Positions 15,442 to 39,493 are shown, numbered from the stretch's first letter. The stretch: DNA of 64,000 nt from an uncultured Gammaproteobacteria bacterium (GCA_964348615.1 CAYGDE010000001.1:9096-73095); one strand, 5' to 3'. Notes: generated from the sequence alone by a model not told the origin. Numbers and translations are program-made.

Positions 15442-16167
15442 ATGGATCTCACAGATAGACAAAAATCATTGCTTCGGGCAGTCATCGAAAAATATATCGA
15501 AAATGCAGAACCTATTGGTTCTGAAACAGTTGAAAAAGAAGCCCGGCTTGGCGTTTCGCCAGCAACTATCAGAAATGAAATGGTTCGTTTAACCAGTCTT
15601 GGTTATTTAAAACAGCCACACACCTCGGCCGGACGTATTCCCACTTCCATGGGAATGAAATTTTATGTCGATCAGTTAATGGAAGAAAAATCACTCTCGC
15701 TAAAAGACGAAGTAGCCATAAAAGAAGAATTAAAAGAAGATGAAAACACTCGCTTCGACAAACTTCTAAGGCACACAGCCAGAACTTTGGCAGACCAAAC
15801 AGGTTCTCTGGCAGTTGTAACCGATGAAGACAACGACATTTACTCAGCAGGCATGGCAAATATTTTAGATATGCCCGAATTTTTTGATATCGACATCACA
15901 AAAACTGTCCTTTCCATGTTAGACAAAATTGAACTGTTAAACCAGGTAACAGACCAACTTTTGCCAGAAGACCAGATAAAAATTCTCTTTGGTGAAGAAT
16001 TAGGTGTACCTTTTCTTGAACCATGCGGTTTTATAGTTACTAGATATCAAACACCAAACCATAGAGGCGTTTTGGGGTTAATTGGCCCAAACAGGCTCAA
16101 TTTTTCAGTCGCTATTCCGACAATGAGATATTTTTCGCAGATTCTTTCCGAAATGCGGATGATATAA
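15442..16167 (+). CDS. hrcA: heat-inducible transcription repressor HrcA (short form, 241 aa)
   Basis: MDLTDRQKSLLRAVIEKYIENAEPIGSETV...SPATIRNEM; operon context with CIRCE. Confidence 0.85.
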   Translation: MDLTDRQKSLLRAVIEKYIENAEPIGSETVEKEARLGVSPATIRNEMVRLTSLGYLKQPHTSAGRIPTSMGMKFYVDQLMEEKSLSLKDEVAIKEELKEDENTRFDKLLRHTARTLADQTGSLAVVTDEDNDIYSAGMANILDMPEFFDIDITKTVLSMLDKIELLNQVTDQLLPEDQIKILFGEELGVPFLEPCGFIVTRYQTPNHRGVLGLIGPNRLNFSVAIPTMRYFSQILSEMRMI

Positions 16168-16174
16168 AACTAAA

Positions 16175-16678
16175 ATGCCAAAAAGCAAAAAAACCGTCAG
16201 CAAACCAGAGGAATCAAACAAGCAAGACCAAAAAGCGCAAGAGCTAGAAAGTCAGCTCAAAAGAGCACTTGCAGATTACCACAATCTGGAAAGAAGAGTC
16301 GAAGAAGAAAGAAGACTTTTGTCCTCACTGTCATCTGCTCTTCTTATCGAAAAATTCTTGCCGGTTTTAGACAATTTAGAAAATGCTAATACACACTTAA
16401 ACGACCAGGGTTTAGAAATTGTAATAAAGCAGTTTAAAAACCTTTTGCAATCCGAGGGTGTAGAAGAAATTGATTCAAAAGGGCAGCAATTCGATCCAAA
16501 CTTGCACGAAGCGATTGAGACGCAAGAAGGGGAAAACAACAATATGATTGTAAGAATAACAAGAAAAGGTTATAAAATGAATGATAAGGTACTGCGACCA
16601 GCACAAGTAATAGTTGAAAGAAAAACAATTCAAAACGAACAGAAAGGAGAAGATCAAGTAGCGGACACCGCAAATTAA
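16175..16678 (+). CDS. grpE: nucleotide exchange factor GrpE
   Basis: ADYHNLERRVEEERR, coiled coil, C-terminal beta domain. Confidence 0.85.
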   Translation: MPKSKKTVSKPEESNKQDQKAQELESQLKRALADYHNLERRVEEERRLLSSLSSALLIEKFLPVLDNLENANTHLNDQGLEIVIKQFKNLLQSEGVEEIDSKGQQFDPNLHEAIETQEGENNNMIVRITRKGYKMNDKVLRPAQVIVERKTIQNEQKGEDQVADTAN

Positions 16679-16699
16679 CTGGTCCCAATCAAACTAACC

Positions 16700-18601
16700 A
16701 TGTCAAAAGTCGTCGGAATAGATTTAGGAACAACAAATTCATGTGTTGCGGTTGTCGAAGGTGGAAAGCCCAAGGTAATCCACTCCGCAGAAGGCAGAAA
16801 TACGATTCCTTCTGTTGTCGACCCACAAAAGCACATCGTCGGTGACGTCGCAAAACGTCAAATGGTTGTAAACCCCAAAACCACAATCTTTTCAGTAAAA
16901 AGGTTGATGGGTAGAAAGTACAAAGACCCAGAAGTTCAAAAAGACATTAAATGGTTGCCTTACGAAATCAAAGAGGGCCGGGATGGTATGGCTATTGTTT
17001 CTGTAGATGGTCACGACTATACTCCACAAGAAATTTCAGCAATGGTTCTGCAAAAGATCAAAGCCGATGCAGAAGCGTACTTAGGCGAAAAAGTTGAAAG
17101 TGCAGTAATTACTGTTCCTGCATATTTTGATGATTCTCAAAGGCAAGCCACAAAACAGGCTGGAGAAATTGCTGGCCTCAAAGTTGAAAGAATAATTAAC
17201 GAACCAACAGCAGCAGCACTAGCCTACGGTCTTGATAAAACTCACGCACACACAATTGTTGTTTACGATCTAGGTGGTGGGACTTTCGACATTTCCGTTT
17301 TGGAGCTTGGAGAAGGTGTTTTTGAAGTCAAAGCAACCAATGGTGACACGCACCTTGGCGGCGACGATTTCGACCAAAAAATTCAAGAATATTTGGCAGA
17401 AGAATTCAAAAAAGAATCCGGGGTCGATATTTCCAAAGATAGACAAGCACTTCAAAGGCTTAGAGATGCTGCCGAAAAAGCCAAGATAGAACTTTCTTCC
17501 ACCATGGAAACAGAAGTATCTATTCCTTATTTGACTGCCGACCAGTCTGGCCCAAAACATTTGCAGCTTAAACTTTCCCGTGCCAAATTGGAAGCCATTG
17601 TTGGTGATCTTGTCGAAAAATCACTTGGTCCGGTAAAGGCCTGTCTCAAAGACGCAAAAGTAGATCCAAAGAGCATTGACGAGATTGTTTTAGTTGGTGG
17701 AATGACCAGGATGCCTTTGGTTTTTCAAAAGGTTAAAGAATATTTTGGCAAAGAACCAAACAAAAGCATTAACCCAGACGAAGTAGTGGCAGTCGGTGCA
17801 GCAGTCCAAGGCGGAGTGTTAACTGGCGAAATGAAAGAAATGGTGCTTCTGGATGTTACGCCGCTAACTTTAGGTATCGAAACGTTAGGCAGCGTCTCAA
17901 CGCCGCTGATTCCAAGAAACACAACCGTCCCAACTTCCAAATCAGAAGTTTTTTCTACAGCTGCCGACAATCAAACATCGGTCGAAATTAACGTTTTACA
18001 AGGAGAACGTCCAATGGCGGCAGACAACAAATCACTTGGAAAATTTATTTTAGACGGTATTCCGCCAAGTCCTCGAGGTGTTCCACAAGTAGAAGTTGCT
18101 TTCGACATAGACGCGTCAGGAATATTAAGCGTTAAGGCAAAAGACAAAGCCACAGGCAAAGAACAATCTATAAAAATAACCGGCTCAACAGGCTTAACCG
18201 ACGAAGAGATCAAGAGAATGACCCAAGAGGCAGAAGAACATGCCAAGGAAGATGAAGCCAAAAAAGAGGAAATCGAAACCAAAAACAAAGCAGACTCACT
18301 AGTCTATCAAGCAGAAAAGTCTCTAAAAGACGCTGGTGACAAAGTACCCGCAGAAGTTAAAAGTGAAGTCGAAGAAAAAGTAAAAGCCCTAAAAGATGTT
18401 CAATCTTCAGGTTCTACCGAAGAAATTAAAACGAAAACAGAAGAACTTTCTGCAGTTCTTTCCAAAATAGGCGAGTCAATGTATAAACAAGAGGGCCAAA
18501 AAAGCCCCAAAGGGCCAGACGACCAAACACAAGAAGAGCCTCAAGGTGATCAAAAGGCAGACACAGGTGACGTCCAAGAAGGCGAAGTCGTAAAGGAATA
18601 A
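16700..18601 (+). CDS. dnaK: chaperone DnaK (Hsp70)
   Basis: [32 protein letters not shown]. Confidence 0.97.
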
Positions 18602-18603
18602 AA

Positions 18604-19128
18604 GTGTTGGATTCTAAATCCGAAGTAACAGCAACTGCCCAACAAGAAGGTAACCCAAATAAAAATTTGGTACTTTCACTTGAAGGCTGGCGCCCAATAT
18701 TTCATTTTGCTTTTAGGAATTGGCTTAACAAACAAACTGGCATGAGTATCCTTTCAAGAAAACAATTAGTTAGAATTTTGAGTGATCCTAATGAGCCAGA
18801 AGAAAGACAGGCATTGGCAAATGACCTTTATTTTGCAAGGGGGGCACAGAACATAACCAAAGATCCGGATGAAAAAATGTTTCCTAGAACTGAAACAATA
18901 AGTGCACAATCTTTTGACGATAATACTGTTCTTTTTCTTGCCGAAAATCTAGATCCTGATTATGTCTATCAACCATTCTTTGAAAGACAAGTGCATGATA
19001 GAAGACTTGATGATTTTAAAAAACCTGTTCAAGCTGGCCTTCCAGGTTTTGGTAAAGAAACAGCAGAACAAAAACCCAGAGAATTACCAAGACCGCAATT
19101 TATCGCAAAACTGGTAAGTAAATTTTAA
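18604..19128 (+). CDS. hypothetical protein (GTG start 3 nt after the dnaK stop), embedded in the dnaK operon
   Basis: 174-aa ORF tightly coupled to dnaK; I recognise no family. Confidence 0.5.
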   Translation: MLDSKSEVTATAQQEGNPNKNLVLSLEGWRPIFHFAFRNWLNKQTGMSILSRKQLVRILSDPNEPEERQALANDLYFARGAQNITKDPDEKMFPRTETISAQSFDDNTVLFLAENLDPDYVYQPFFERQVHDRRLDDFKKPVQAGLPGFGKETAEQKPRELPRPQFIAKLVSKF

Positions 19129-19129
19129 A

Positions 19130-19576
19130 ATGGCCAATCTTAAAACCGACATTTTTACCCTCTGTGATTACGCAACTGTTTCAAGAGAACAGAAACTTTC
19201 TGTAATTGGCATTTTCGACCAGTTTTTCATTGCCGATGTGCCAACCACTTGGCCTAAAATGTTTTTAGTCGCAGTCCTTTCTGGCCAAGCAAATCAAGAA
19301 TACGATATCACCTTAAAAATAATCCCGCCCGCCAAAACAGGCCAAAACTTTCCAGACAAAGAATTAAAAGTCACACTTGGTAACAATGGCCGGGCAAATT
19401 TAATTACAGAACTTGTCAATTTCCCACTACCCTTAGTCGGAACATACAAAATTGAAATTCTAGAAGGTAATCCGCCCGCAGGTGAAAAAGTCGGCCATTT
19501 CGAATTTAAGGTTAACAAAACAACTGCAACCTACACCGGAGGACAAGATCTCAAAGGTAACAAAATTGTTAACTAA
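19130..19576 (+). CDS. hypothetical protein, embedded in the dnaK operon
   Basis: 148-aa ORF starting 2 nt after the previous stop; I recognise no family. Confidence 0.5.
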   Translation: MANLKTDIFTLCDYATVSREQKLSVIGIFDQFFIADVPTTWPKMFLVAVLSGQANQEYDITLKIIPPAKTGQNFPDKELKVTLGNNGRANLITELVNFPLPLVGTYKIEILEGNPPAGEKVGHFEFKVNKTTATYTGGQDLKGNKIVN

Positions 19577-19603
19577 AAATCCTCTCTTTTATATAATACC
19601 CAT

Positions 19604-20455
19604 ATGGCTACCAAAAAAGACTACTACGAAGTTCTAGGTGTTCCAAAAACAGCATCTGCCGACGAGTTGAAAAAGGCCTACCGGCAACAAGCGCGAAAAT
19701 TCCACCCAGACGTAAACAAAGAAACGGGCGCCGAAGACAAATTCAAAGAAATAAACGAAGCCTACCAAGTACTTTCAGACCCACAAAAAAAAGGCGCCTA
19801 CGACCAATACGGCCATAGCGCATTCGAACCAGGAGCTGGTGGTTTTGGCGGAGCAGGAGCAAGGCCAGGCGGAAATTACCAAACTTACTCATGGTCTTCA
19901 GGCGACGCAGGCGGATTCGACTTTGGAGGTTTTCAAGATCCATTTGATATTTTCGAAGCAGTGTTTGGCGGCAATTCGCCCTTTTCCAGGCAGCAAAGAG
20001 TACCTAGATATGCTATCGAAATTCCCTTTATAGAAGCTATAAATGGTGTTACCAAAGAGGTCGAAATAGAAGGTAAAAAACAAAAAATAAAAATCCCGGC
20101 TGGAGTTGATAGTGGTTCCGAAATCCGTTTTGGCAGCTTCATAATTGTTTGCCAAGTTCAACCAAGCCAAAAATTTAAAAGGCAGGGGTACGATATTGTT
20201 TCAGAAAAAGAAATCACTTTTTCCCAAGCAGCACTTGGAACAGAGGAAGACATAGAAACAGTTTATGGAAATGTGAGAATAAAAATTCCAGCCGGCACCC
20301 AACCTGGAACGCAAGTACGACTTCGGGGAAAAGGAGTCAAAAGGGTTTCCGGCCATGGTCAAGGCGACCACTACGTAATAATCAGGTTAAAAGTCCCCAC
20401 CAAACTTTCCAAACAACAAAAAGAACTACTAGAAGACCTGGAAGAAACTTTTTAA
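19604..20455 (+). CDS. dnaJ: DnaJ-family co-chaperone lacking the Cys-rich zinc-finger domain (CbpA-like)
   Basis: J domain DYYEVLGV...[16 protein letters not shown]; G/F-rich linker; no CxxCxGxG repeats. Confidence 0.85.
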
Positions 20456-24582: not shown

Positions 24583-24849
24583 ATGGCTCAAGCAACAGCA
24601 AAAAAATCAGTAATAGACAAGTTTGCAACTCACGCAGGTGACACTGGCTCACCAGAGGTTCAAGTTGCGCTGCTTTCCCAAAGGATTCAAACGGTCTCCG
24701 ACCATTTAAAAGGTCACGGGCACGATGACCATTCAAGACGTGGTCTTCTTTCCATGATCAACAAGAGAAGAAGACTTCTCCACTACCTTACAAGAAAAGC
24801 ACCCGACCGCTACAAGGACATAATTGGAAAACTCGGATTGTCGAAATAA
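24583..24849 (+). CDS. rpsO: 30S ribosomal protein S15
   Basis: 88 aa; GDTGSPEVQVALLSQRIQTVSDHLKGHGHDDHSRRGLL. Confidence 0.9.
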   Translation: MAQATAKKSVIDKFATHAGDTGSPEVQVALLSQRIQTVSDHLKGHGHDDHSRRGLLSMINKRRRLLHYLTRKAPDRYKDIIGKLGLSK

Positions 24850-24937
24850 CATCTTGCTATTTAGAACCTTATATTCGCTCGCGAATACATACTTCCTAAA
24901 CCATAAATATTTGCTCGCTTATGTAAACTCCTAGTTC

Positions 24938-24966
24938 TTGCAAAATGGAAGTTTATAGGGTATAAT
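24938..24966 (+). promoter_or_regulatory. sigma-70-like promoter TTGCAA-17-TATAAT in the rpsO-pnp intergenic region
   Basis: TTGCAA at 24938-24943 and TATAAT at 24961-24966. Confidence 0.65.
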
Positions 24967-25010
24967 ACAGTTTAGAGTTAAGAGATTTGGGTAGTTGGAA
25001 GTTGATTAGT

Positions 25011-25036
25011 ATGAAGCATAGAGATACATGCTTCAT
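25011..25036 (+). promoter_or_regulatory. pnp leader hairpin (perfect 9-bp stem ATGAAGCAT/ATGCTTCAT, 8-nt loop)
   Basis: Perfect inverted repeat in the 5' UTR of pnp; a second hairpin CCCGAAA-ATA-TTTCGGG lies at 25098-25114. Confidence 0.5.
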
Positions 25037-25141
25037 AGTATCCGATTTCTAACCGCTCTTCCTCTTTTCTCAAAATATTTCACTTGTTACTCTAAATCCC
25101 GAAAATATTTCGGGACAACAATGTTGGAATCTTAAAAAATC

Positions 25142-27349
25142 ATGACTCAAAAATTAGTCAAAAAAGAACTAGAACTTGCAGGCAAAAAGCTTGTTTTGGA
25201 AACAGGCGAGTTAGCAGGCCATGCAAACGCGGCAGTTTTGGCAACCTATGGTGAAACCGTAGTTTTGGCAACAGCAGTTTCTCAAGAAGCCCCAGAAAAC
25301 ATGGGGTTTTTCCCGTTGGCTGTAGATTTTGAAGAAAGACTTTACGCCGGCGGCAAAATATCTACATCCAGATTCATAAAAAGAGAAGGCAGACCTTCTG
25401 AAAGGTCTGTACTTACCGGAAGACTTGTTGACAGATCTATTCGTCCGCTGTTCCCAAAAGATTACATGGCTCAAGTCCAGGTAATTGTTACTGTTCTTTC
25501 GGTCGACGGTGAAAACGAACCAGACGTTGTTTCCTTAATTGCAGCATCAGCTGCACTTACAATTTCTGACATTCCATGGAATGGTCCTCTTGCCGGAATT
25601 AAAGTAGCCAAGAAAAATGGCGATTACTTTGCCAACCCTACAGAAGAAGAAAAGAAATTTTCCGACCTTGAGCTTTTAGTTGCATCAACCAAAGACGAAA
25701 TCGTCATGATCGAAGCAGCAGCCCAAGAAGTTGACGAAAAATATATGGCTGGTGCCTTAGAATTTGCAGTTAAACAAGGCAACGAAGTAATCAAATTAAT
25801 CGAGGATTTACAAAAAGAAGCGGGCAAAGAAAAACAGAAATACACCCCCAACAAATTACAAGGCGACAAAGAAAAAGCAGTTTTAGATTTTATCGAATCC
25901 GACATCATCAAAGACTTAGAAAAACCTGGCAAAGCTCAGGACGAATCTTGGTTTGGAGAATCTGTCGATCGGCTAAAAGAAGTTTTTGGACAAGGAGACG
26001 AAGCAATCGACGGTAAAATACTTGGAGATTTGCTAGACGATGCCGTTGCCGATTTTATGCGCAAACATGTGCTTACCAAAAAAATCAGAATAGACGGCAG
26101 AAACCCTGAAGAAATTAGGCCAATTTTTATAAAAGCCCCAATCCTTCCAAGAACACACGGTTCCGCTATTTTCCAAAGAGGCGAAACTCAGGTTTTATCC
26201 ATAGTCACCCTAGGTTCTCCTTCACTCGAGCAGCTAATTGAAGGTATGAGCGGTGAAGAAAAAAGAAGATACATGCATCACTACAACTTCCCGCCCTTTT
26301 GTTCCGGTGAAGTTAAAAGGATGGGTTCACCAGGAAGAAGAGAAATCGGGCATGGCGCACTAGCTGAAAAAGCTCTAATTCCGGTAATTCCCGCTCAAGA
26401 GCAATTCCCTTACACCATACGAGTTGTCTCAGAGGTACTTTCCTCTGCAGGTTCAACATCGCAAGCTTCAGTCTGCGGTTCAACGCTTGCCCTTATGGAT
26501 GCCGGTGTCCCAATTAAGGCACCCGTTGCCGGAATATCCATTGGGTTAATCACCGACATGAAAGACAAATCAAAATACGTTCTTTTAACCGACATTGCCT
26601 ATCAAGAAGATTCTCAAGGGGACATGGATTTTAAAGTTGCAGGGACAAGTGCTGGTATTACTGCAATTCAAATGGACATTAAGCTTTCGGGAATTTCCAC
26701 ACAAGTAGCCAAGGAAGCTTTAGAAAAAGCCAGAGTAGCAAGGCTTTCAATTCTAGATCTGATGAAAAAAGCCCTGCCAACGTCCAGAGAAAAAATCTCA
26801 CCACATGCGCCAACCGTTATTTTGGTCAGAATCGACCCTTCCAAAATTGGCGAAGTTATTGGTTCAGGTGGCAGAGTAATCAACAAGATAATCGAAACCA
26901 CAGGTGCCGCCGTTGATATCGAAGACGATGGATCTGTTATGATTTCTGCCAAATCGCCAGAAGCAGCCCAAAAAGCAGCAGAATGGGTCGAAGGTATTGT
27001 CAAAGAACCGCAGCCAGGAGAAGTTTACGAAGGTCCGGTTAAAAGAATTATGCCATTTGGCGCTTTTGTTGAAATACTTCCAGGCAAAGAAGGCCTGGTA
27101 CATATTTCTAAAATGGCACCATATCACGTCGAAAGAGTCGAAGATGTGGTTAAATTAGACCAGATAGTTAAAGTAAACGTTTCCGAAATAGACGACATGG
27201 GAAGACTAAATCTTTCTATGCTTTTTGGGGAAGATGCAAAGAAAAAACAAGAAGAAACACGAGGGGAAAGAGGAGGAGATTTCCAAAGAAGACCAGCCGG
27301 TAGATTCGACCGCAGGCCTAGTTCCCGTCCCCCAAGAAAACGCTTTTAA
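25142..27349 (+). CDS. pnp: polynucleotide phosphorylase (PNPase)
   Basis: Two RNase PH domains, KH (IGEVIGSGGRVINKI), S1, and an Arg-rich tail. Confidence 0.95.
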   Translation: MTQKLVKKELELAGKKLVLETGELAGHANAAVLATYGETVVLATAVSQEAPENMGFFPLAVDFEERLYAGGKISTSRFIKREGRPSERSVLTGRLVDRSIRPLFPKDYMAQVQVIVTVLSVDGENEPDVVSLIAASAALTISDIPWNGPLAGIKVAKKNGDYFANPTEEEKKFSDLELLVASTKDEIVMIEAAAQEVDEKYMAGALEFAVKQGNEVIKLIEDLQKEAGKEKQKYTPNKLQGDKEKAVLDFIESDIIKDLEKPGKAQDESWFGESVDRLKEVFGQGDEAIDGKILGDLLDDAVADFMRKHVLTKKIRIDGRNPEEIRPIFIKAPILPRTHGSAIFQRGETQVLSIVTLGSPSLEQLIEGMSGEEKRRYMHHYNFPPFCSGEVKRMGSPGRREIGHGALAEKALIPVIPAQEQFPYTIRVVSEVLSSAGSTSQASVCGSTLALMDAGVPIKAPVAGISIGLITDMKDKSKYVLLTDIAYQEDSQGDMDFKVAGTSAGITAIQMDIKLSGISTQVAKEALEKARVARLSILDLMKKALPTSREKISPHAPTVILVRIDPSKIGEVIGSGGRVINKIIETTGAAVDIEDDGSVMISAKSPEAAQKAAEWVEGIVKEPQPGEVYEGPVKRIMPFGAFVEILPGKEGLVHISKMAPYHVERVEDVVKLDQIVKVNVSEIDDMGRLNLSMLFGEDAKKKQEETRGERGGDFQRRPAGRFDRRPSSRPPRKRF

Positions 27350-28316
27350 AAAACTCGCAAAACCCAAATTAATTTTGGTAGGTATTTTAATACTTGCCGC
27401 CCTCGCCGTTTTTTTCGTCTTTCCCAAACCAACTATAAAACAAAGCCAAGCGGAAATTGTTACCGCCGAAAATAGTTTCAAGATAAATTTCAATCTCGAA
27501 AGCCCAGACAAAGAAAACATTTCTCAGCTTTTTGAAAAACTCCAAATTTCTCAAAATGTTTTAAAAGGGGTCACATTTGAATTAGACAGCACATCTTCAG
27601 CAAAGCTTGCATTTGCAAACCCGATTTCGGCAAATATTCAATCACAACAAGGAAAAATTTCCTTTTCTGGCACCGCCCAAACACCACCAATGCAGTCGCA
27701 ATTTACGCCGCCTTCAAATTACAAAATGCCCCAAAGTGCCCTTTTTGTCCTTTTTGCTCCCAACTTTTTGCCCCAGGTGCAAAAACTAGTTGGTACACCC
27801 ACTCAACTCGCAAATTGGATAGACCAGAATCTAGATTCCCAAAACGGTCAACTCTTACAACTTTTTCCAGAAGGCGACTTTGTTTTGGCATTTAATTCAA
27901 AAAAAGAGCCAGATTTTACCAGTCTTGCCCAGCTAGAGTTCCAAGACCAAATAGAATCCCCCTACATTCAACAGATAGAAAGCGATGTTAATATCCATAT
28001 TGTAAAAATCACCAAGCAAGAAGGGGAGACAACAGTCACGTTTTTTAAAATTGGAGACGAAATATATATAGCCTCTTCAACAGATGCTGCAAAGCAAATA
28101 ATAGCTGTGCAAAAGGAAAATGCGCCCTCAGTTGATTTTCCCAAAACAGACGATAAAGTATCAGCAGTAGTATTTTTGAAAAACCCCGAAAACAAAGACA
28201 TCAACCTTACGATCTTTGGCTCAGGTGCAAAAAAATTGGAAAAATATTTAAAGAATTTAAAAGAAGGCCAAGTGATTTTGAAAGGTACTAAAATTTCCGG
28301 CTACGTCACCTACTAA
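27225..28316 (+). CDS. hypothetical membrane-anchored extracytoplasmic protein; true start uncertain (probably TTG near 27375, since the listed start overlaps pnp by 125 nt)
   Basis: TM segment LILVGILILAALAVFFVF followed by a soluble domain; no recognisable family. Confidence 0.45.
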   Translation: MGKMQRKNKKKHEGKEEEISKEDQPVDSTAGLVPVPQENAFKKLAKPKLILVGILILAALAVFFVFPKPTIKQSQAEIVTAENSFKINFNLESPDKENISQLFEKLQISQNVLKGVTFELDSTSSAKLAFANPISANIQSQQGKISFSGTAQTPPMQSQFTPPSNYKMPQSALFVLFAPNFLPQVQKLVGTPTQLANWIDQNLDSQNGQLLQLFPEGDFVLAFNSKKEPDFTSLAQLEFQDQIESPYIQQIESDVNIHIVKITKQEGETTVTFFKIGDEIYIASSTDAAKQIIAVQKENAPSVDFPKTDDKVSAVVFLKNPENKDINLTIFGSGAKKLEKYLKNLKEGQVILKGTKISGYVTY

Positions 28317-28375
28317 CTACCGACTAATCATCTACCCTCTACCCACTACCTACTACGCACTAATATAATGGATCT

Positions 28376-29425
28376 ATGGACAACTCCGCCCAATTTGAAG
28401 ATATTGTACTTCTGGAAAATAAGCTAACAGCAGCCAGTGCCCAAATTCCCAAAGATTTATTGGAAAAAGCCAAAGCAATGTGTCAGCGTTTAGTAAGGAT
28501 GGCTCAAGCCCAAGGTTATTCGCAAGAATACGATTCCGTATCTCGCTATTTAGACTGGATTGTCTCTCTGCCTTGGACAAAAAAAAGCCAGGACAATCTT
28601 TCCTTAGAAAATGCTAAAAAAATTCTAGACCAAAACCATTATGGCTTGGAAAACATCAAAGAGAGAATTTTGGAATATATTTCGGTTGCCAACTTAACAG
28701 CATCAACCAAAAAAACAAAAGCGCCCGCACTCTTGCTTCTAGGTCTTGTGGGAACAGGAAAAACTACAATGGCTTATTCTATTGCCCAAGCGCTAGGCAG
28801 AAGCTTCGGCAGAATACCGCTTGGAGGTATGGGAGACGCACTTCAGCTTAGAGGCAAAGCAAGATCCTCGACCGATGCCGAACCAGGCCAAATAATTAAA
28901 ACCTTAAGAAGAGTGGAAAGTAAAAACCCTGTCATTCTGTTGGACGAGTTGGACAGGGTTACCAACGAAGCAAAAGCAGACATCATGGGAGTACTTGTTG
29001 AACTTTTAGACCCAGAGCAAAACAGCAGTTTTTTGGACCATTTCTTAGATTACCCATTCGACCTCTCCGAAGTTTTGTTTATTGCAACTGCCAACAATAC
29101 AGGCGGCATTGCAACCGCCGTCTTAGACCGTTTGGAAGTAATGGAAATGCCAAGTTACACAGATGAGCAAAAGATAGTAATCGGCAAAAACTATCTTCTT
29201 CCAAGAGCGATTGGGGCATGTGGACTAAAAAGTACAGAACTGGTTTTTGATGAAACCGTATGGCAGCAGATTGTAAGGCCTTTGGGTTTTGATGCGGGTA
29301 TGAGAACTTTGGACCGAACTATAAATGGCATTTGCAGAAAAGTTGCAAAGCTTAAATTAGAAGGCAAGGCAACAAGTGTTAAATTAACAGCAGAAAATGT
29401 AAAAGAATACCTGCCCACTTGGTAA
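28376..29425 (+). CDS. Lon-derived AAA+ ATPase module without the N-terminal substrate domain and without the protease domain
   Basis: Colinear with the Lon AAA+ region: YLDWIVSLPW, HYGLENIKERILEYISV, Walker A GLVGTGKTT, Walker B VILLDELDR, LVELLDPEQNSSFLDHFLDYPFDLSEVLFIATAN, VLDRLEVMEMPSYTDEQK. Ends at the point where the Lon peptidase domain would begin. Confidence 0.75.
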   Translation: MDNSAQFEDIVLLENKLTAASAQIPKDLLEKAKAMCQRLVRMAQAQGYSQEYDSVSRYLDWIVSLPWTKKSQDNLSLENAKKILDQNHYGLENIKERILEYISVANLTASTKKTKAPALLLLGLVGTGKTTMAYSIAQALGRSFGRIPLGGMGDALQLRGKARSSTDAEPGQIIKTLRRVESKNPVILLDELDRVTNEAKADIMGVLVELLDPEQNSSFLDHFLDYPFDLSEVLFIATANNTGGIATAVLDRLEVMEMPSYTDEQKIVIGKNYLLPRAIGACGLKSTELVFDETVWQQIVRPLGFDAGMRTLDRTINGICRKVAKLKLEGKATSVKLTAENVKEYLPTW

Positions 29426-29432
29426 TAAGCTT

Positions 29433-29501
29433 ATCTTTAACCTTAGCAACATAATCCATACAATGGACTAGTTGCGCAGGTTAAAGACTTTGTCTTTAAC
29501 C
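29433..29501 (+). promoter_or_regulatory. X-X'-X alternative-hairpin element (TCTTTAACCT ... AGGTTAAAGA-CTTTG-TCTTTAACCT) between the lon-like gene and ftsK
   Basis: One 10-mer occurs twice with its exact reverse complement in between, allowing two mutually exclusive stems; a TATAAT follows immediately. Confidence 0.45.
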
Positions 29502-29555
29502 TATAATAGTTGTAATTTTACTCAAAATAGTGTAAACTAGAAAGACGCTGCCATA

Positions 29556-31664
29556 ATGAGAAGATATAAAAGATCCAGAGTTTCACCCCTCGCCCTAGAA
29601 AAAAAAACTATAACTAACATCATCGGTTTTTCGGCGATTGGGTTTGCGATCCTACTTCTAATTTCTCTTTTTACAAAAGCCGGCGCACTTCTTTCTCTTA
29701 AAAGCTATTTTTACAATCTGTTTGGCGTTGGAATAATTATTATTCCGCTTATCATCGCAACTGCAAGCTTGCCCCTTGTTTCTGTTAAAAACAAATTTAC
29801 TCAGAACAATGTGACAATAGGCGCAGTAGGGTTTTTACTTTCACTAATTGGTCTTATTGGGCTCGGTTCAGAAACTTTTGCTGGTCTTATTGGTGTTTCT
29901 CTTTGGTCCGCAACCAAATCCGCATTAACCACACCAGGCGCATTTTTCTTCCTTTTGGTCTGTCTTCTAATCTCAACAGTAATCACCTTCAACACAAGCG
30001 TCGACCAAGTGGTTGCCGTATTTGGAGCAATTTTTACAAAAATATCAAGTGTTTTAAAAGTAATAAAATCAAAAATATTTTCCGCCAAAAAACACCAACT
30101 GACAACTTCGGGAGTAAACGACAGCGGCTACAGGTCCAGAATGCAAAAAGTAAAATCAGCAGCCACAGACGATGACGGCCTTGGACAAAGCATCGTCATA
30201 AACACTCCCGGCCAAACTCAAATTTGGCAGTACCCACCACTTTCTCTTCTAAACGACACGATAGGTTCGGTTGCTAATCGTGGCAATGTTAAGCAAAATG
30301 CCCAAACTATAGAAAAAACTCTAGAAGCATTTGGTATTCATGCCGAAGTTGCAGAAGTCAACCCAGGGCCCACCGTTACACAGTATGCACTTAAAATTCC
30401 AGTTGGAACCAAACTTTCTAAAATTCTTACCCTCCAAAACGATCTAGCACTAAATTTAGCAACATCAACAGGTAATGTCAGGATCGAAGCACCAATTCCT
30501 GGCAAGTCACTTGTTGGTATAGAAATACCTAACATATCTCCTGAAATTGTTTCTTTAAGAAACGCCCTGTCTTCAGACCAAATGAGAACCAGCAAAAGTA
30601 AAACCGTAGTCGGTCTGGGTCTCGATGTTTCTGGAAACACCATAATTGCCGACATAGCCAAGATGCCCCACTTGTTAATCGCCGGTACTACAGGTTCTGG
30701 AAAATCCGTACTCATGAACGCACTCATTGCGACATTTCTTTTTAGGGCAAGTCCGCAGGAAGTGAAGCTTATTTTGGTAGATCCCAAAAGAGTGGAACTT
30801 TCAGAATATAACGATATTCCCCACCTATTAACACCAGTAATTGTCGAACCAGACAAAATACTTTCCGCCCTTAAATGGGCAATGCAGGAAATGGACAGAC
30901 GCTACAGATCTTTCAAAGAAGCAGGAGTAAGAAATATTGCTGGATACAATGAACTTTCAGGTTTTCAGGCACTTCCGTATATAATCATCATCATAGACGA
31001 ACTGCATTCGCTAATGGAATTTGCGCCGGTTGAAGTAGAAGATGCTGTCGTGCGTCTTGCATCTCTTGCACGGGCGACAGGAATTCATTTAGTAGTTGCA
31101 ACCCAAAGGCCATCTGTCGATGTGATAACTGGTTTAATTAAGGCCAATATTCCAGCAAGGATCGCTTTCAATGTTTCATCTATGATCGACTCAAGAGTCA
31201 TAATCGACCAGCCTGGTGCCGAAAAGTTGCTCGGAAAAGGTGACATGCTTTATGTGCCACCAGATGCTTCAAAACCTATGAGGATTCAAGGCGTTTACGT
31301 TTCAGACAACGAAATTAGAAATCTTATAGATTTCCTCAAAAAATCTGGCTTTTCTCCGGAATATACAGAAGAAGTTACTCAAATGCCTCTTGGAAAAGTT
31401 GGAGGAGCCAAAGGGGGCTCAGATGGTGAAAAAGATGAACTTTTCGAAGAAGCACTCAGAACAGTTTGCCAATACGATCGGGCATCAGCTTCACTTCTTC
31501 AAAGAAGACTGAGAATAGGTTATGCTAGGGCAGCAAGAGTAATTGACGAATTAGAAACAGCTGGTATCATAGGTCCTGGAGAAGGATCTAAACCAAGAGA
31601 TGTTTTGGTAAAAAACGCTGAAGAATATTTACAATCAAATACCCAAAACACTTCACAAGAATAA
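29556..31664 (+). CDS. ftsK: DNA translocase FtsK/SpoIIIE
   Basis: N-terminal TM region; Walker A LLIAGTTGSGKSV; motor domain; C-terminal gamma wHTH (LQRRLRIGYARAARVIDELE). Confidence 0.9.
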   Translation: MRRYKRSRVSPLALEKKTITNIIGFSAIGFAILLLISLFTKAGALLSLKSYFYNLFGVGIIIIPLIIATASLPLVSVKNKFTQNNVTIGAVGFLLSLIGLIGLGSETFAGLIGVSLWSATKSALTTPGAFFFLLVCLLISTVITFNTSVDQVVAVFGAIFTKISSVLKVIKSKIFSAKKHQLTTSGVNDSGYRSRMQKVKSAATDDDGLGQSIVINTPGQTQIWQYPPLSLLNDTIGSVANRGNVKQNAQTIEKTLEAFGIHAEVAEVNPGPTVTQYALKIPVGTKLSKILTLQNDLALNLATSTGNVRIEAPIPGKSLVGIEIPNISPEIVSLRNALSSDQMRTSKSKTVVGLGLDVSGNTIIADIAKMPHLLIAGTTGSGKSVLMNALIATFLFRASPQEVKLILVDPKRVELSEYNDIPHLLTPVIVEPDKILSALKWAMQEMDRRYRSFKEAGVRNIAGYNELSGFQALPYIIIIIDELHSLMEFAPVEVEDAVVRLASLARATGIHLVVATQRPSVDVITGLIKANIPARIAFNVSSMIDSRVIIDQPGAEKLLGKGDMLYVPPDASKPMRIQGVYVSDNEIRNLIDFLKKSGFSPEYTEEVTQMPLGKVGGAKGGSDGEKDELFEEALRTVCQYDRASASLLQRRLRIGYARAARVIDELETAGIIGPGEGSKPRDVLVKNAEEYLQSNTQNTSQE

Positions 31665-36527: not shown

Positions 36528-38780
36528 ATGAACATGCTCTCTGGCCTATTTAAAAAAGAAAAAGAGCAAAACCAAAATTACCTTGCAATAGTTATTGCCC
36601 CAGACAGGGTTCTGGCAACCATTTGGACATTTGAAGAAGACCGTATTAAAACATTAGGGTTTGGCCATAAAAACTTCAAGGATGAAGATGTTCTGATCCA
36701 CCAAGCAGCAATAGCAATAGACAGTGCCGGTGAACAGGCAAAAGTAGACATTACCAAAACCGTCTATGGACTTTCGGAATATTATTTGGAAGATGGGTCC
36801 CTTTCGAGGCAAAGTTCAAAAATCTTAAAAAAACTATCATCCGATCTGGACCTCGACCCTCAAGCTTTTGTACCATTGGCGGCAAGCATAAACCATCTTT
36901 TAAAAGTTGAAGAATCCCAAACACCTCACACCGTCCTAATGGGTATTTTTGAAAACTTTTGCGAAGTCCATTTGTTAGAATCGGGCAAAGTTTCAAAAAC
37001 CCACGTCTCAAAAGGTCCAACAAATATTGAAAAGCTTAAAAACCTAGCCAATACCTTAAAAGAAGAAGGCAGGACTTTACCCGCAAGGATTGTAGTTTAC
37101 GGTATAAGCGAATCTTCCCAGCTTGCCGAAAAAATTGCCAATGATCCTTGGGAACAGCTATTCATGCATGAACCAAAAGTAGATTTTCTAGACGATGCAG
37201 AACTGTCTCGGTCAATCGCCTACGCTCAAGCAGCAGACGTTTTGGGTTACGACCCACAAATCCGCAAAGGTCCAAAAGAAGACGGAAACATTAATCCTTC
37301 AGGGTTAGCCGCCGGAAACGAACTTCCCTTACAAGGCGAACAGGAAAAAGAAGCAGCCGCGCAAAAAGAGGAGGAAACAAAATCTGAAGACGCTGCCCAA
37401 GAATATAAGACCAACGAATTAGGTTTTGTTGAAGGGGAGGATATTCTACTTTTGGAAAATAAACTAGAAGCAAAAGAGGCAGAGCCAACCAAAGCCCAAA
37501 TTTCACCCAAAGAAGAATATGCAGTAAACGTTGAACAGGCCGCAAATATTGCTCCGGTTTCGCAGCAACCAACACCGCAACCAAAAAACAAAACCCCCTT
37601 GCTTCCAAGTCTCCATTTTCCCCAATTACCTAATCCTTTAAGTCTTATAAAAGGCCCAAAGTCTGCTCAAAAATTTATGATTGCAGCGGGTATTTTACTG
37701 TTTGTTGCGCTTGGCGGTACTTTTGCTTTTGGCCAAACAATGGCAAATGCTACCATCCAAATTAAGGTAAACGGTAAAGAATTTGACAAAGATTTCCAAA
37801 TAAGCGCCAAAGTTGGTGAAAGTTACAACAAAGACGATGCTCAAATAGGAGCAGCTCTTATAAGTGCGAAGACTTCTGCAAGTCAAAAAGCAGTAGCAAC
37901 AGGTTCCAAAAAAATCGGCCAAGGAGCCAAAGGCCCAATCACTATTTCAAACTGGACAACCGCAGAAAAAAGCTTTTCTCCCCAAACAGGTATTATTTCC
38001 AAAGATGGTATTAAATTCTCACTCGACTCAGATGTTACAGTTGCCTCAAGAAGTGCAGGGCCAGGACAAGCAAACGTGAACGTAACTGCTGTCGATTTAG
38101 GTACTGTTGGCAATCTAGGGGCAGGTAATTACTTTACTTTTCAAGAGTATGACCAACTTTCCTATGACGCCACAAACCCAAGTGCTTTTTCAGGGGGAGA
38201 CGAGAGGCAAGCAACAGTTGTTACAAAAGACGATATCGATAGGCTAGAAAAATCTGTTTTGGACACAGCAACCGAGAAAGCTAAATCAGACATACAAAAT
38301 CAGTCTGGAGGGCAAAAAATCGATTCCTCTCAGATCGAGGTGAAGGTATTAAAACGCACTCAAGACAAAAAAGCCGATGAAGAAGCCTCGCTTGTAAATC
38401 TAGACCTAGAAGTAGAAGCCACGGCGGTAGTTTATCTCGAAGATGAGCTCAAAGCACTTCTTGTAGACATTTACCAAAGCGAAGCCCCACAAAATCTGGA
38501 AATCCTACCGGAAAATATAAAAATTGAAGATTTAAAAATAACAAGAAACGAAGAGAATTTAGAAATAAGCGGCAAACTTAAAGCAAGCCTAGTGCCGAAG
38601 TTTAACCAAGAAGATCTTAAAAACATGATTGCCGGCAAAAGCACAAAAGATACCAGGGCTCAAATAATGTCACTTGGAGATATTGCAGATGTTAATGTTA
38701 CCTTTGTGCCAAATATTCCCATATTTTCTACAATCCCCAGAAACAAAAACAAGATCAGCTTTAAAGTAGAAACGAATTAA
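36528..38780 (+). CDS. large bitopic membrane protein: cytoplasmic N-terminal domain (possibly actin/PilM/FtsA-like), acidic linker, TM, about 360-aa extracytoplasmic domain
   Basis: TM FMIAAGILLFVALGGTFAFG at about residue 390; 1-nt overlap with the downstream sortase. Confidence 0.5.
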   Translation: MNMLSGLFKKEKEQNQNYLAIVIAPDRVLATIWTFEEDRIKTLGFGHKNFKDEDVLIHQAAIAIDSAGEQAKVDITKTVYGLSEYYLEDGSLSRQSSKILKKLSSDLDLDPQAFVPLAASINHLLKVEESQTPHTVLMGIFENFCEVHLLESGKVSKTHVSKGPTNIEKLKNLANTLKEEGRTLPARIVVYGISESSQLAEKIANDPWEQLFMHEPKVDFLDDAELSRSIAYAQAADVLGYDPQIRKGPKEDGNINPSGLAAGNELPLQGEQEKEAAAQKEEETKSEDAAQEYKTNELGFVEGEDILLLENKLEAKEAEPTKAQISPKEEYAVNVEQAANIAPVSQQPTPQPKNKTPLLPSLHFPQLPNPLSLIKGPKSAQKFMIAAGILLFVALGGTFAFGQTMANATIQIKVNGKEFDKDFQISAKVGESYNKDDAQIGAALISAKTSASQKAVATGSKKIGQGAKGPITISNWTTAEKSFSPQTGIISKDGIKFSLDSDVTVASRSAGPGQANVNVTAVDLGTVGNLGAGNYFTFQEYDQLSYDATNPSAFSGGDERQATVVTKDDIDRLEKSVLDTATEKAKSDIQNQSGGQKIDSSQIEVKVLKRTQDKKADEEASLVNLDLEVEATAVVYLEDELKALLVDIYQSEAPQNLEILPENIKIEDLKITRNEENLEISGKLKASLVPKFNQEDLKNMIAGKSTKDTRAQIMSLGDIADVNVTFVPNIPIFSTIPRNKNKISFKVETN

Positions 38781-39493
38781 TGCCACTCGCAGTTTACACA
38801 AAAGAAGACACTGCCCAAAAAATTAAACAGAAGAAAAGAAAAACCCGAACTTTCTTTGGCGCAATCTGTGCAGTTGGTATTATCGCAGTTGTATTTGCCG
38901 CCGGGCCTTTTATAATTTGGCAAACAAGAACACTCCCCAAACTAACCGCAAAAATTGACCAAGCACCAATTCCACAAAATTCTGTCCTGTCTGAAAAAAC
39001 GATTCAGTCAAATGTCGAAGTGGTTCAAGATTCCGACGGTTTTTCTTACTTCACAACAAACCTCAAACCCCAAGAGTCCAGACCTAAAGAATTCAAACTC
39101 TCAATCCCAAAGCTTGAAATAAAAGACGCAAAAGTTAGAGTCGATAGTCTGACTTTCAACGAAAATCTGGCTCTTTTTCCGGGGACAGCACTGCCGGGGG
39201 AAGTTGGTAACGCTTTTATTACTGGCCATTCAGTCCTGCCGCAATTTGCAGACCCCAAAAACTATCGTGCGATTTTTACCGAGCTTTCCGAGTTAGAAAT
39301 AGGCGATGATGTTTTTGTCCAGCGAGAAAACCAAACATTTCATTATGTGGTGCAGTATTCCAAGGTAGTGGACCCTAAAGATCTTTCTGTTCTTGCCCCT
39401 ATTTCTCAAAATGGCCAAAATCTCACCCTCATGACTTGCGTTCCTCCAGGCTCTGCCACAAAACGCCTAGTCGTCATCACTAGCCTGATCTAG
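38780..39493 (+). CDS. sortase-family transpeptidase
   Basis: N-terminal TM; FITGHSVL (catalytic His); LTLMTCVPPG (TLxTC catalytic Cys); R in RLVVITS. Confidence 0.75.
   Translation: MPLAVYTKEDTAQKIKQKKRKTRTFFGAICAVGIIAVVFAAGPFIIWQTRTLPKLTAKIDQAPIPQNSVLSEKTIQSNVEVVQDSDGFSYFTTNLKPQESRPKEFKLSIPKLEIKDAKVRVDSLTFNENLALFPGTALPGEVGNAFITGHSVLPQFADPKNYRAIFTELSELEIGDDVFVQRENQTFHYVVQYSKVVDPKDLSVLAPISQNGQNLTLMTCVPPGSATKRLVVITSLI

Follow-up and report, generated by a model that had tools for sequence, protein, structure and literature searches.

A gene that encodes the ATPase module of the Lon protease and nothing else raises a simple question: is it a lon gene that has lost its end, or does it specify a protein in its own right and, if so, what could a Lon motor without a peptidase be doing? 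We address this question for a gene in a stretch of 64,000 nucleotides recorded under the name of an uncultured Gammaproteobacteria bacterium (GCA_964348615.1, CAYGDE010000001.1:9096-73095), the whole of which is called the window below. The gene, on the plus strand and with an ATG start, encodes a stand-alone LonA-type AAA+ ATPase of 349 aa, called the AAA-only protein here (see Table 1 for coordinates). The window gene is a member of a family that extends across the ultra-small Patescibacteria and not a truncated lon, and by its pattern of conservation it is a functional, strongly constrained LonA paralogue with the ATPase module only. As to its role, we see about an even chance that the product, derived from Lon, works as an oligomer that hydrolyses ATP without proteolysis and without canonical threading, and that it remodels or regulates its targets, with protein quality control as the most likely setting.

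The domain content is that of the Lon motor. Pfam finds AAA (PF00004) at residues 119-255 (E 9e-18) and Lon_lid (PF22667) at residues 282-332 (E 5e-10) and nothing else, with no match to Lon_C (PF05362) or LON_substr_bdg (PF02190) on this protein even at E 0.1. The endopeptidase La model TIGR00763 covers it through model positions 258-570 of 795 only, and the scores are below the equivalog cut-offs, 336.3 bits against 608.05 for TIGR00763 and 265.6 bits against 891 for NF008053. The closest solved structures are LonA proteases, the top one being that of B. subtilis (3M6A, E 1e-77, query residues 13-346). Of the traits of LonB and LonC, the protein shows no transmembrane insertion, no degenerate Walker motifs and no S16 domain. 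Residues 1-64 are the counterpart of the C-terminal three-helix bundle in the HI(CC)/N-terminal region of LonA (PMC6722904).

The initial annotation, made from the sequence alone, had read the gene as a Lon AAA+ module rather than a protease, stopping at the point where the Ser-Lys peptidase domain would begin and followed by ftsK. These statements stand. The 349-aa open reading frame (ORF) and all the motifs that it quoted are present in the translation (YLDWIVSLPW at residues 58-67, RGKARSSTD at 159-167 and DLSEVLFIATAN at 229-240), the Pfam and NCBIfam searches return neither Lon_C nor LON_substr_bdg, and the 3' end reads TGG TAA TAA, after which the 130-nt spacer before ftsK (29556) has stops in every frame. 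The gene stop is TAA, and UGA recoding is therefore no concern. The same annotation had pointed to a frameshift or contig error as something that might reconnect a downstream peptidase, and there is none to reconnect: a tblastn search of all six frames of the 64 kb, in which 11 Lons were each cut into N-domain, AAA module and peptidase, gave an AAA match only (best unrelated match E 0.017), and other members of the family share the same end. No other lon was found among the window ORFs scanned, which included all ORFs of at least 450 aa.

Another option considered was membership of a defence system. Against the anti-phage AAA ATPases (IetA/IteA, DolB and similar), the top PADLOC match is a generic P-loop one of 27 bits, and IteA reaches 19 bits against a cut-off of 510. 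With generic profile matches only, and with surrounding genes that are housekeeping genes and not a defence island, this option was rejected.

We now turn to the family. More than 100 database clusters are 70-82% identical to the window protein, all of them 345-364 aa long and with the same two Pfam domains. With the range of identity widened to 64-82%, the clusters of ~348 aa number more than 200 and form two sub-clades. The NCBI clusters are named 'AAA family ATPase' and are mostly from Candidatus Curtissbacteria, and those of the Joint Genome Institute (JGI) are named 'ATP-dependent Lon protease'. A HMMER scan of 1.8 billion representatives adds a tier of short proteins at 42-55% identity, two of which are named Dojkabacteria. 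In a joint alignment the short proteins end 0-5 residues past Trp349 of the window protein, whereas canonical Lons run on for 190-230 residues of peptidase. A scan of GTDB with one genome per species gave at least 80 loci. Among the 80 listed, 42 have an ORF of 332-482 aa ending at the lid (one cut by the contig end) and 38 have a full-length Lon of ~700-950 aa, all of the latter outside the Candidate Phyla Radiation (CPR), with no intermediates between the two forms.

The lineages that carry the family are Curtiss-, Shapiro-, Levy-, Ames-, Davies-, Roizman-, Woese-, Dojka- and Nomurabacteria, Saccharibacteria and 'Patescibacteria group'. Its members can be recognized by a core of ~345-400 aa ending 0-5 aa past the lid and by the motifs G[LVI]xGxGKT, RGxS[RK]xx[DE][AS]EPG and VWxxI[VI]RPLG[FY][DE]; the window protein carries all of these signatures, and no Pfam or NCBIfam model specific to the family was found. 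In some members, low-complexity segments of 100-300 aa rich in Q, P and S are fused to the conserved core, N-terminally in P0143, P0136, P0141 and P0147 and C-terminally in P0166 and P0158. Many records with the family gene, TPA bins among them, bear titles such as 'uncultured Gammaproteobacteria/Pseudomonadales bacterium', 'Candidatus Methanoperedens sp.' or 'Weeksellaceae' (for example L007, L009, L012 and L033; protein P0508), and on a Patescibacteria-specific gene such titles are probably placeholder taxonomy or the result of mis-binning.

It is at this point that a pseudogene, a frameshifted lon or an assembly artefact has to be considered, each of which would account for the truncated look of the gene and for that only. 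The boundaries are identical in hundreds of independent assemblies and in 42 GTDB species genomes, the amino-acid sequence is strongly conserved, a double TAA ends the gene with unrelated genes after it, and an intact lon can coexist with it (see below). We thus regard explanations of this kind as refuted, with a probability close to nil.

In a neighbour-joining phylogeny, a placement that the initial annotation had suggested, the AAA-only proteins are split from the canonical Lons in 100% of 500 bootstraps. The short family is 41% identical to CPR Lons and 40% to other Lons, while CPR and other Lons are 56% identical to each other. A duplication inside the CPR was considered and rejected, as the grouping of AAA-only proteins with CPR Lons has a bootstrap value of 5.6% and the family is equidistant from all Lons. 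On these distances the family is a long, fast-diverged branch of uncertain age, because it is no closer to CPR Lons than to others and because of that low bootstrap value.

Canonical LonA also exists in Patescibacteria. P0204 is such a protein, with 778 aa and the order LON_substr_bdg, AAA, Lon_lid and Lon_C, and its close relatives in Roizmanbacteria, Microgenomates, Parcubacteria, Pacebacteria and Falkowbacteria are annotated as endopeptidase La. On the closed Roizmanbacteria chromosome CP066689.1 (1,103,789 bp), a LonA (P0328) and an AAA-only protein (P0523) are encoded ~150 kb apart. Since the two share one closed chromosome, the AAA-only protein is a paralogue of LonA and not its replacement. 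A metagenome scan with an alignment of CPR Lon peptidases gave nothing on the Curtissbacteria contigs with AAA-only genes, among the matches listed.

The presence of both proteins in one closed genome opens the possibility that AAA-only subunits mix into, or stack on, the canonical LonA with which they share a cell, and so adjust how active it is or which substrates it selects. The inter-subunit elements of the ATP site are conserved and Lon-like, and Lons with tandem AAA modules elsewhere indicate that extra modules can work with one peptidase ring. Proteins of the latter kind (P0121, P0123, P0124, P0127, P0133, P0134 and P0135) have two or three tandem AAA+/Lon_lid modules and a single S16 domain, and some tandem-AAA Lons have signal peptides or ankyrin repeats; the near-identical repeats in P0126 and P0130 may be artefacts of assembly or gene models. 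These Lons were also considered as a Rosetta-stone fusion linking the family to Lon, which was rejected: their extra modules lack the family signatures and are independent duplications. Moreover, the ~41% identity to CPR Lons, with the family equidistant from all Lons, argues against a maintained co-assembly, the two genes are far apart in CP066689.1, and a canonical Lon alongside is seen in one carrier genome and is not established for all. A modulator of Lon is therefore a distinctly improbable role.

The residues of the ATP site carry the case for a working motor. In alignments A1, A2 and A4, which span 40-100% identity, K129 of Walker A, D190 and E191 of Walker B, D212 and P213, N240 of sensor-1, R252 and R310 are invariant, and E214 of the LDPEQN loop is kept in most members without being invariant. 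R252 is located in a DR[LM]E motif and R310 in G[MVI]RxL[DE]R. The roles of the equivalent residues in LonA are established, including those that complete the ATP site in trans between adjacent subunits (PMC8503904). The main argument for an oligomeric, ATP-hydrolysing assembly is that the trans-acting residues, which work only across a subunit interface, are conserved.

The predicted structure is consistent with this. An AlphaFold2 model of the monomer, made with 38 family members in the alignment, has a predicted local distance difference test (pLDDT) value of 90.9 and a predicted TM-score (pTM) of 0.84. It superposes over its full length on the AAA+ modules of LonA and LONP1, with TM-scores relative to the query (TMq) of 0.80-0.88 in Foldseek, and it contains a β-hairpin at residues 219-228, at the pre-sensor-1 position. 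The model is approximately coextensive with the E. coli fragment EcLon(235-584), PDB 6N2I (TMq 0.86 and, relative to the target, TMt 0.88). In the crystals of this fragment, the packing is that of an open helical hexamer (PMC6722904), and a protease-less Lon ring is therefore structurally plausible. From the trans-acting residues and this packing together, we infer that the AAA-only protein would assemble into a hexameric ring and hydrolyse ATP.

The pore is where the protein departs from Lon. In Lon, Tyr397 of pore-loop 1 and Trp431 of pore-loop 2 contact the substrate and are needed for degradation (PMC8503904), and at these positions the window protein has Ser165 and Ala199, respectively. 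To put this in perspective, 200 canonical Lons, about 120 of them from the CPR, were compared with 266 short proteins. In pore-loop 1 the canonical Lons have Tyr in 199 of 200 cases and Y-[VIL] in 197, and in pore-loop 2 more than 90% have [F/Y/W/L/H/M]RGDP. The short proteins have Tyr in 42% and Ser or Thr in 43% at the first position, the remainder being F, N, E, A, H, Q or R, and the aromatic residue at the second position is essentially absent. The Tyr cases represent the Curtissbacteria clade, where Pro is the next residue. Judged from these alignments, the substrate contacts of the pore loops are lost in the window protein, and lost or relaxed across the family.

This result bears on two further claims of the initial annotation. 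The replacement of GPPGVGKT by GLVGTGKT and of RGHRRTYIG by RGKARSSTD is real, and both are traits of the family. The description as a repurposed unfoldase or chaperone-like ATPase survives in part: the protein is indeed no protease, and 'unfoldase' is doubtful, as RGHRRTY is pore-loop 1 and both gripping residues are lost.

It also bears on the scenario of a ring that binds a peptidase from another gene (stand-alone S16, ClpP-like or other), in the way that ClpX docks on ClpP. Such a two-component protease would fit a family that terminates exactly at the linker and in which many members have a conserved terminal aromatic residue (…LPTW, …PTY or …QAW) that might be a docking tail. The loss of the pore-loop Tyr and Trp is, however, the opposite of what a translocating partner needs; in addition, the conserved neighbours include a peptidase gene in none of the 45 loci, and there is no S16 fragment in the 64-kb window. 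We consider this scenario very unlikely.

Taken together, the mechanism that we favour can be outlined as follows. The AAA-only protein would assemble as a Lon-like hexameric ring or spiral and hydrolyse ATP. It would not degrade substrates, and processive threading of polypeptides is improbable, because the protein has neither a peptidase nor the aromatic residues conserved in the pore of Lon. Instead, the ring would most likely use ATP to remodel or regulate its targets without degrading them, by holding, remodelling or assembly, and this role may derive from the chaperone-like function of Lon. A link to proteostasis is provided by the Roizman/Woesebacteria-type clade, in which the gene and groES-groEL are transcribed in opposite directions.

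It is important to point out that several observations weigh against this picture. The ATPase activity and the oligomeric state are predicted from sequence and structure, and the kind of substrate is conjectural. The peptidase ring and the N-domain of canonical Lon strongly stabilise the hexamer, and a stable ring in their absence is an assumption. The Curtissbacteria sub-clade mostly keeps the pore Tyr, so that some threading ability is possible there. The coexistence with canonical Lon is seen in one genome, the Roizmanbacteria chromosome CP066689.1. Finally, most lineages place the gene between two ribonuclease genes and not beside chaperone genes, and no CIRCE/HrcA operator was found beside it, either in the window or in the family loci.

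Table 1. The stand-alone LonA-type ATPase gene of the window, its sequence elements and its immediate surroundings. Residue numbers in parentheses refer to the 349-aa protein; AF2, AlphaFold2 model.
Feature	Position	Strand	Remarks
Whole ATPase gene	28376..29425	+	Three-helix bundle, α/β domain and Lon lid; without N-domain, without S16 peptidase
Three N-terminal helices (1-64)	28376..28567	+	AF2 helices 2-19, 26-45, 49-64; aligned to Lon 254-320 region
Walker A GLVGTGKTT (123-131)	28742..28768	+	Lys129 retained; canonical Lon GPPG[VT]GKTS
Pore-loop-1 equivalent RGKARSSTDAEPG (159-171)	28850..28888	+	Ser165 in place of Lon pore Tyr; DAEPG is a family signature
Walker B LLDELD (188-193)	28937..28954	+	Asp190, Glu191 invariant
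Pore-loop-2 equivalent RVTNEAKADIM (194-204)	28955..28987	+	Ala199 for Lon Trp/Phe; RGDP motif gone
LDPEQN loop (211-216)	29006..29023	+	Conserved
Sensor-1 region TANN (238-241)	29087..29098	+	Asn240 invariant
Arg252, Arg-finger equivalent (Mta Lon R484)	29129..29131	+	Invariant
Arg310, sensor-II equivalent (Mta Lon R541)	29303..29305	+	Invariant; preceded by family-specific VWxxIVRPLGFD (295-306)
Double stop TAA TAA	29423..29428	+	Where canonical Lons start the protease-domain linker
pnp (PNPase)	25142..27349	+	Conserved upstream neighbour, 31/45 family loci
Membrane-anchored protein gene	27225..28316	+	N-terminal anchor; no Pfam match; between pnp and ATPase gene
ftsK	29556..31664	+	Conserved downstream landmark
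TATAAT hexamer	28364..28369	+	Perfect; 6 nt 5' of ATG

Let us next consider the surroundings of the gene. A recurrent layout on one strand consists of rpsO, pnp, the AAA-only gene, a variable small gene, in some cases a gene for a glycosylase of the uracil-DNA glycosylase (UDG) family, the RNase J gene (rnj), ftsK and a rodZ-like gene. The cluster from rpsO to the rodZ-like gene is kept across many Patescibacteria lineages (L006-L046 and L079, for example L017:3600-8800) and is located at 24583-31664 in the window. In most lineages other than that of the window, the ATPase gene and ftsK are separated by RNase J and, in some cases, the UDG gene. No rnj was found anywhere in the 64-kb window, the layout of which is a derived version.

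These neighbours suggest a different role, namely that of an accessory to RNA decay, in which the ring would be a degradosome-type ATPase that works alongside PNPase and RNase J on RNA or ribonucleoprotein (RNP), with a pore changed to one compatible with nucleic acids. The gene lies downstream of rpsO-pnp on the same strand in 31 of the 45 loci, and of the 30 loci in which the distance was measured, 22 have at most 161 nt between the stop codon of pnp and the AAA-only start (13-161 nt in 21, with one ambiguous start). Downstream, a Pfam-verified RNase J is present at a distance of up to 6 kb in 28 of the 45 loci, often after only 2-100 nt. The lost aromatic residues of the pore would also fit, LonA binds nucleic acids, and RuvB, of the same AAA+ clade, translocates DNA. 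However, a pnp...rnj...ftsK backbone also exists in Firmicutes and Actinobacteria, where an AAA-only gene is not known to accompany it, and the neighbours may thus be ancestral synteny. Furthermore, the Roizman/Woesebacteria clade has relocated the gene beside groESL, the window lacks rnj, the -10-like box described below suggests an independent promoter in many loci, and a nucleic-acid-binding motif was not identified. An accessory role of this type is in our view unlikely, and its stronger version, that the Lon-derived ring is the ATPase of a minimal RNA-degradation machine and remodels RNA or RNP for PNPase and RNase J, is slightly more so. If it were true, this would be the first motor of the Lon lineage to change from protein to nucleic-acid substrates.

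Some data on the slot between pnp and rnj come from the Saccharibacterium Southlakia epibionticum ML1 (PMC10633639). In this strain, pnp (SEML1_0093) is followed by a gene for a 296-aa hypothetical protein (0094), which is non-essential, and by rnj (0095) and ftsK (0096), which are essential. The 296-aa gene is different from the AAA-only gene, which means that the slot is variable, and the annotation contains no 'endopeptidase La'. The only Patescibacteria dataset from transposon sequencing (Tn-seq) is thus for a strain without the AAA-only gene.

The evidence on transcription tempers what can be read from operon structure. In ~16 of the 45 family loci, a -10-like hexamer (TATAAT, TATACT, TATTAT and similar) is located 5-7 nt 5' of the start codon. 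These loci lack a Shine-Dalgarno sequence, and the hexamer is seen even where pnp is less than 50 nt upstream. This suggests that the ATPase gene may have its own promoter and a leaderless transcript, and a possible promoter of its own makes inference from the operon less certain.

In the Roizman/Woesebacteria-type sub-clade, the spacers between groES and the AAA-only gene (L005, L019, L021, L032, L037, L039 and L089) contain TTGTCAAG-N13-15-CTGCTAA, located 3-8 nt before the AAA-only start codon, a motif that is promoter-like in appearance and non-palindromic. Heat-shock co-regulation by CIRCE/HrcA was considered and rejected: although the window encodes HrcA, neither the window nor any family locus was found to contain a CIRCE element when 3-4 mismatches were allowed. 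The window contains a cluster hrcA-grpE-dnaK-(174-aa unknown)-dnaJ at 15442-20455, again with no CIRCE (up to 3 mismatches) anywhere in its 64 kb, and HrcA of this lineage may recognise an operator that deviates from the consensus.

The membrane-anchored protein encoded just upstream had been highlighted by the initial annotation. The gene is indeed there. As a general functional partner it was rejected, because it is confined to Curtissbacteria-type loci and adjoins the ATPase gene in only one of the 45 other loci, and because it is poorly conserved, with 26% identity compared to 73% for the ATPase. In L003 its slot is occupied by a DUF4012 gene instead. The gene for the membrane protein has thus been inserted between pnp and the ATPase gene in a lineage-specific manner. 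The ORF as listed begins at a TTG within pnp (pnp stop 27347-27349), and the homologue in L001 aligns from about residue 50; the true start is probably a TTG or ATT near 27351-27375.

The comparison with L001, a contig of 1.08 Mb, also gives a scale for conservation. The identities to the window are 81% for RpsO, 73% for the AAA-only ATPase, 67% for FtsK, 66% for PNPase, 50% for the RodZ-like protein and 26% for the adjacent membrane protein. At this level of sequence conservation in genomes of ~1 Mb, an important function of the ATPase is indicated.

Two other features of the window can be mentioned. The spacer between the ATPase gene and ftsK (29426-29555) has a minimum free energy of -33.3 kcal/mol (z = -3.1 relative to shuffles) and can form mutually exclusive hairpins, CUUUAACCU...AGGUUAAAG or GGUUAAAGAC...GUCUUUAACC, without a T-tract; Rfam gives no match anywhere in the window, this spacer included. 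At 36528-39493, a 750-aa ORF without a Pfam match is followed by a sortase gene. The pair is also present in L001 (18628-21050), and the product of the ORF may be a conserved sortase substrate.

As to the significance of these findings, all Lons have the ATPase and protease domains in one chain according to a recent classification (PMC9569914), and our searches of the full-text literature turned up no account of a Lon paralogue without its protease. Here, a natural, widespread and conserved Lon motor occurs alone, in genomes of ~1 Mb that have shed most dispensable genes. That it is retained beside a complete Lon in at least one genome argues for an autonomous cellular function of the Lon AAA+ module. 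With this family, nature also provides a model for the chaperone-like activity that Lon may have independently of its protease, a matter of long debate. That the gene is found repeatedly between PNPase and RNase J hints at a link to RNA turnover, which can be tested. On the practical side, the JGI label 'ATP-dependent Lon protease' inflates the apparent Lon counts in CPR genomes.

Finally, the AAA-only protein can be compared with known systems. To the LonA proteins of MEROPS S16, subfamily A (E. coli Lon, B. subtilis LonA, M. taiwanensis LonA and human LONP1) it is ~40-45% identical across the 349 aa, and it has in common with them the three-helix bundle, the α/β domain and the lid, the Walker A Lys, the Walker B DE and sensor-1, as well as the Arg finger, sensor-II and the LDPEQN base of the pre-sensor-1 hairpin. 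Unlike them, it has no globular N-domain, no long helix and no S16 Ser-Lys peptidase, and it is below the TIGR00763 cut-off. GLVGTGKT takes the place of GPPGVGKT, the Y-[VI]-G of pore-loop 1 and the [F/W]RGDP of pore-loop 2 are replaced, and the DAEPG and VWxxIVRPLG motifs are specific to the family. A close structural relative is EcLon(235-584), with near-identical boundaries and fold, but that fragment was truncated in the laboratory and has the canonical pore loops, while the AAA-only protein is a natural, independently evolving product in which the pore loops have been rewritten.

Other systems are similar in one respect and different in another. LonC (PMC3391209, PMC13069640), a Lon-like protease that does not unfold proteins with ATP, is likewise a member of the Lon family that has given up one activity, and it is the reciprocal case: it has kept the peptidase with a dead ATPase, whereas in the AAA-only family the ATPase is seemingly live and the peptidase is absent. 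The tandem-AAA Lons (P0121, P0123, P0124, P0134 etc.) have extra copies of the Lon AAA+/lid unit, often with a degenerate pore-loop 1, but these are fused in cis before the peptidase, keep GPPGxGKT and do not have the signatures of the AAA-only family. ClpX, HslU, ClpB D2 and RuvB, which belong to the same superclade, are likewise free-standing AAA+ modules with a pre-sensor-1 β-hairpin and no covalent peptidase. Unlike the AAA-only family, ClpX, HslU and ClpB retain the pore-loop aromatic residue, ClpX and HslU dock on a peptidase, and RuvB works on DNA with RuvA.

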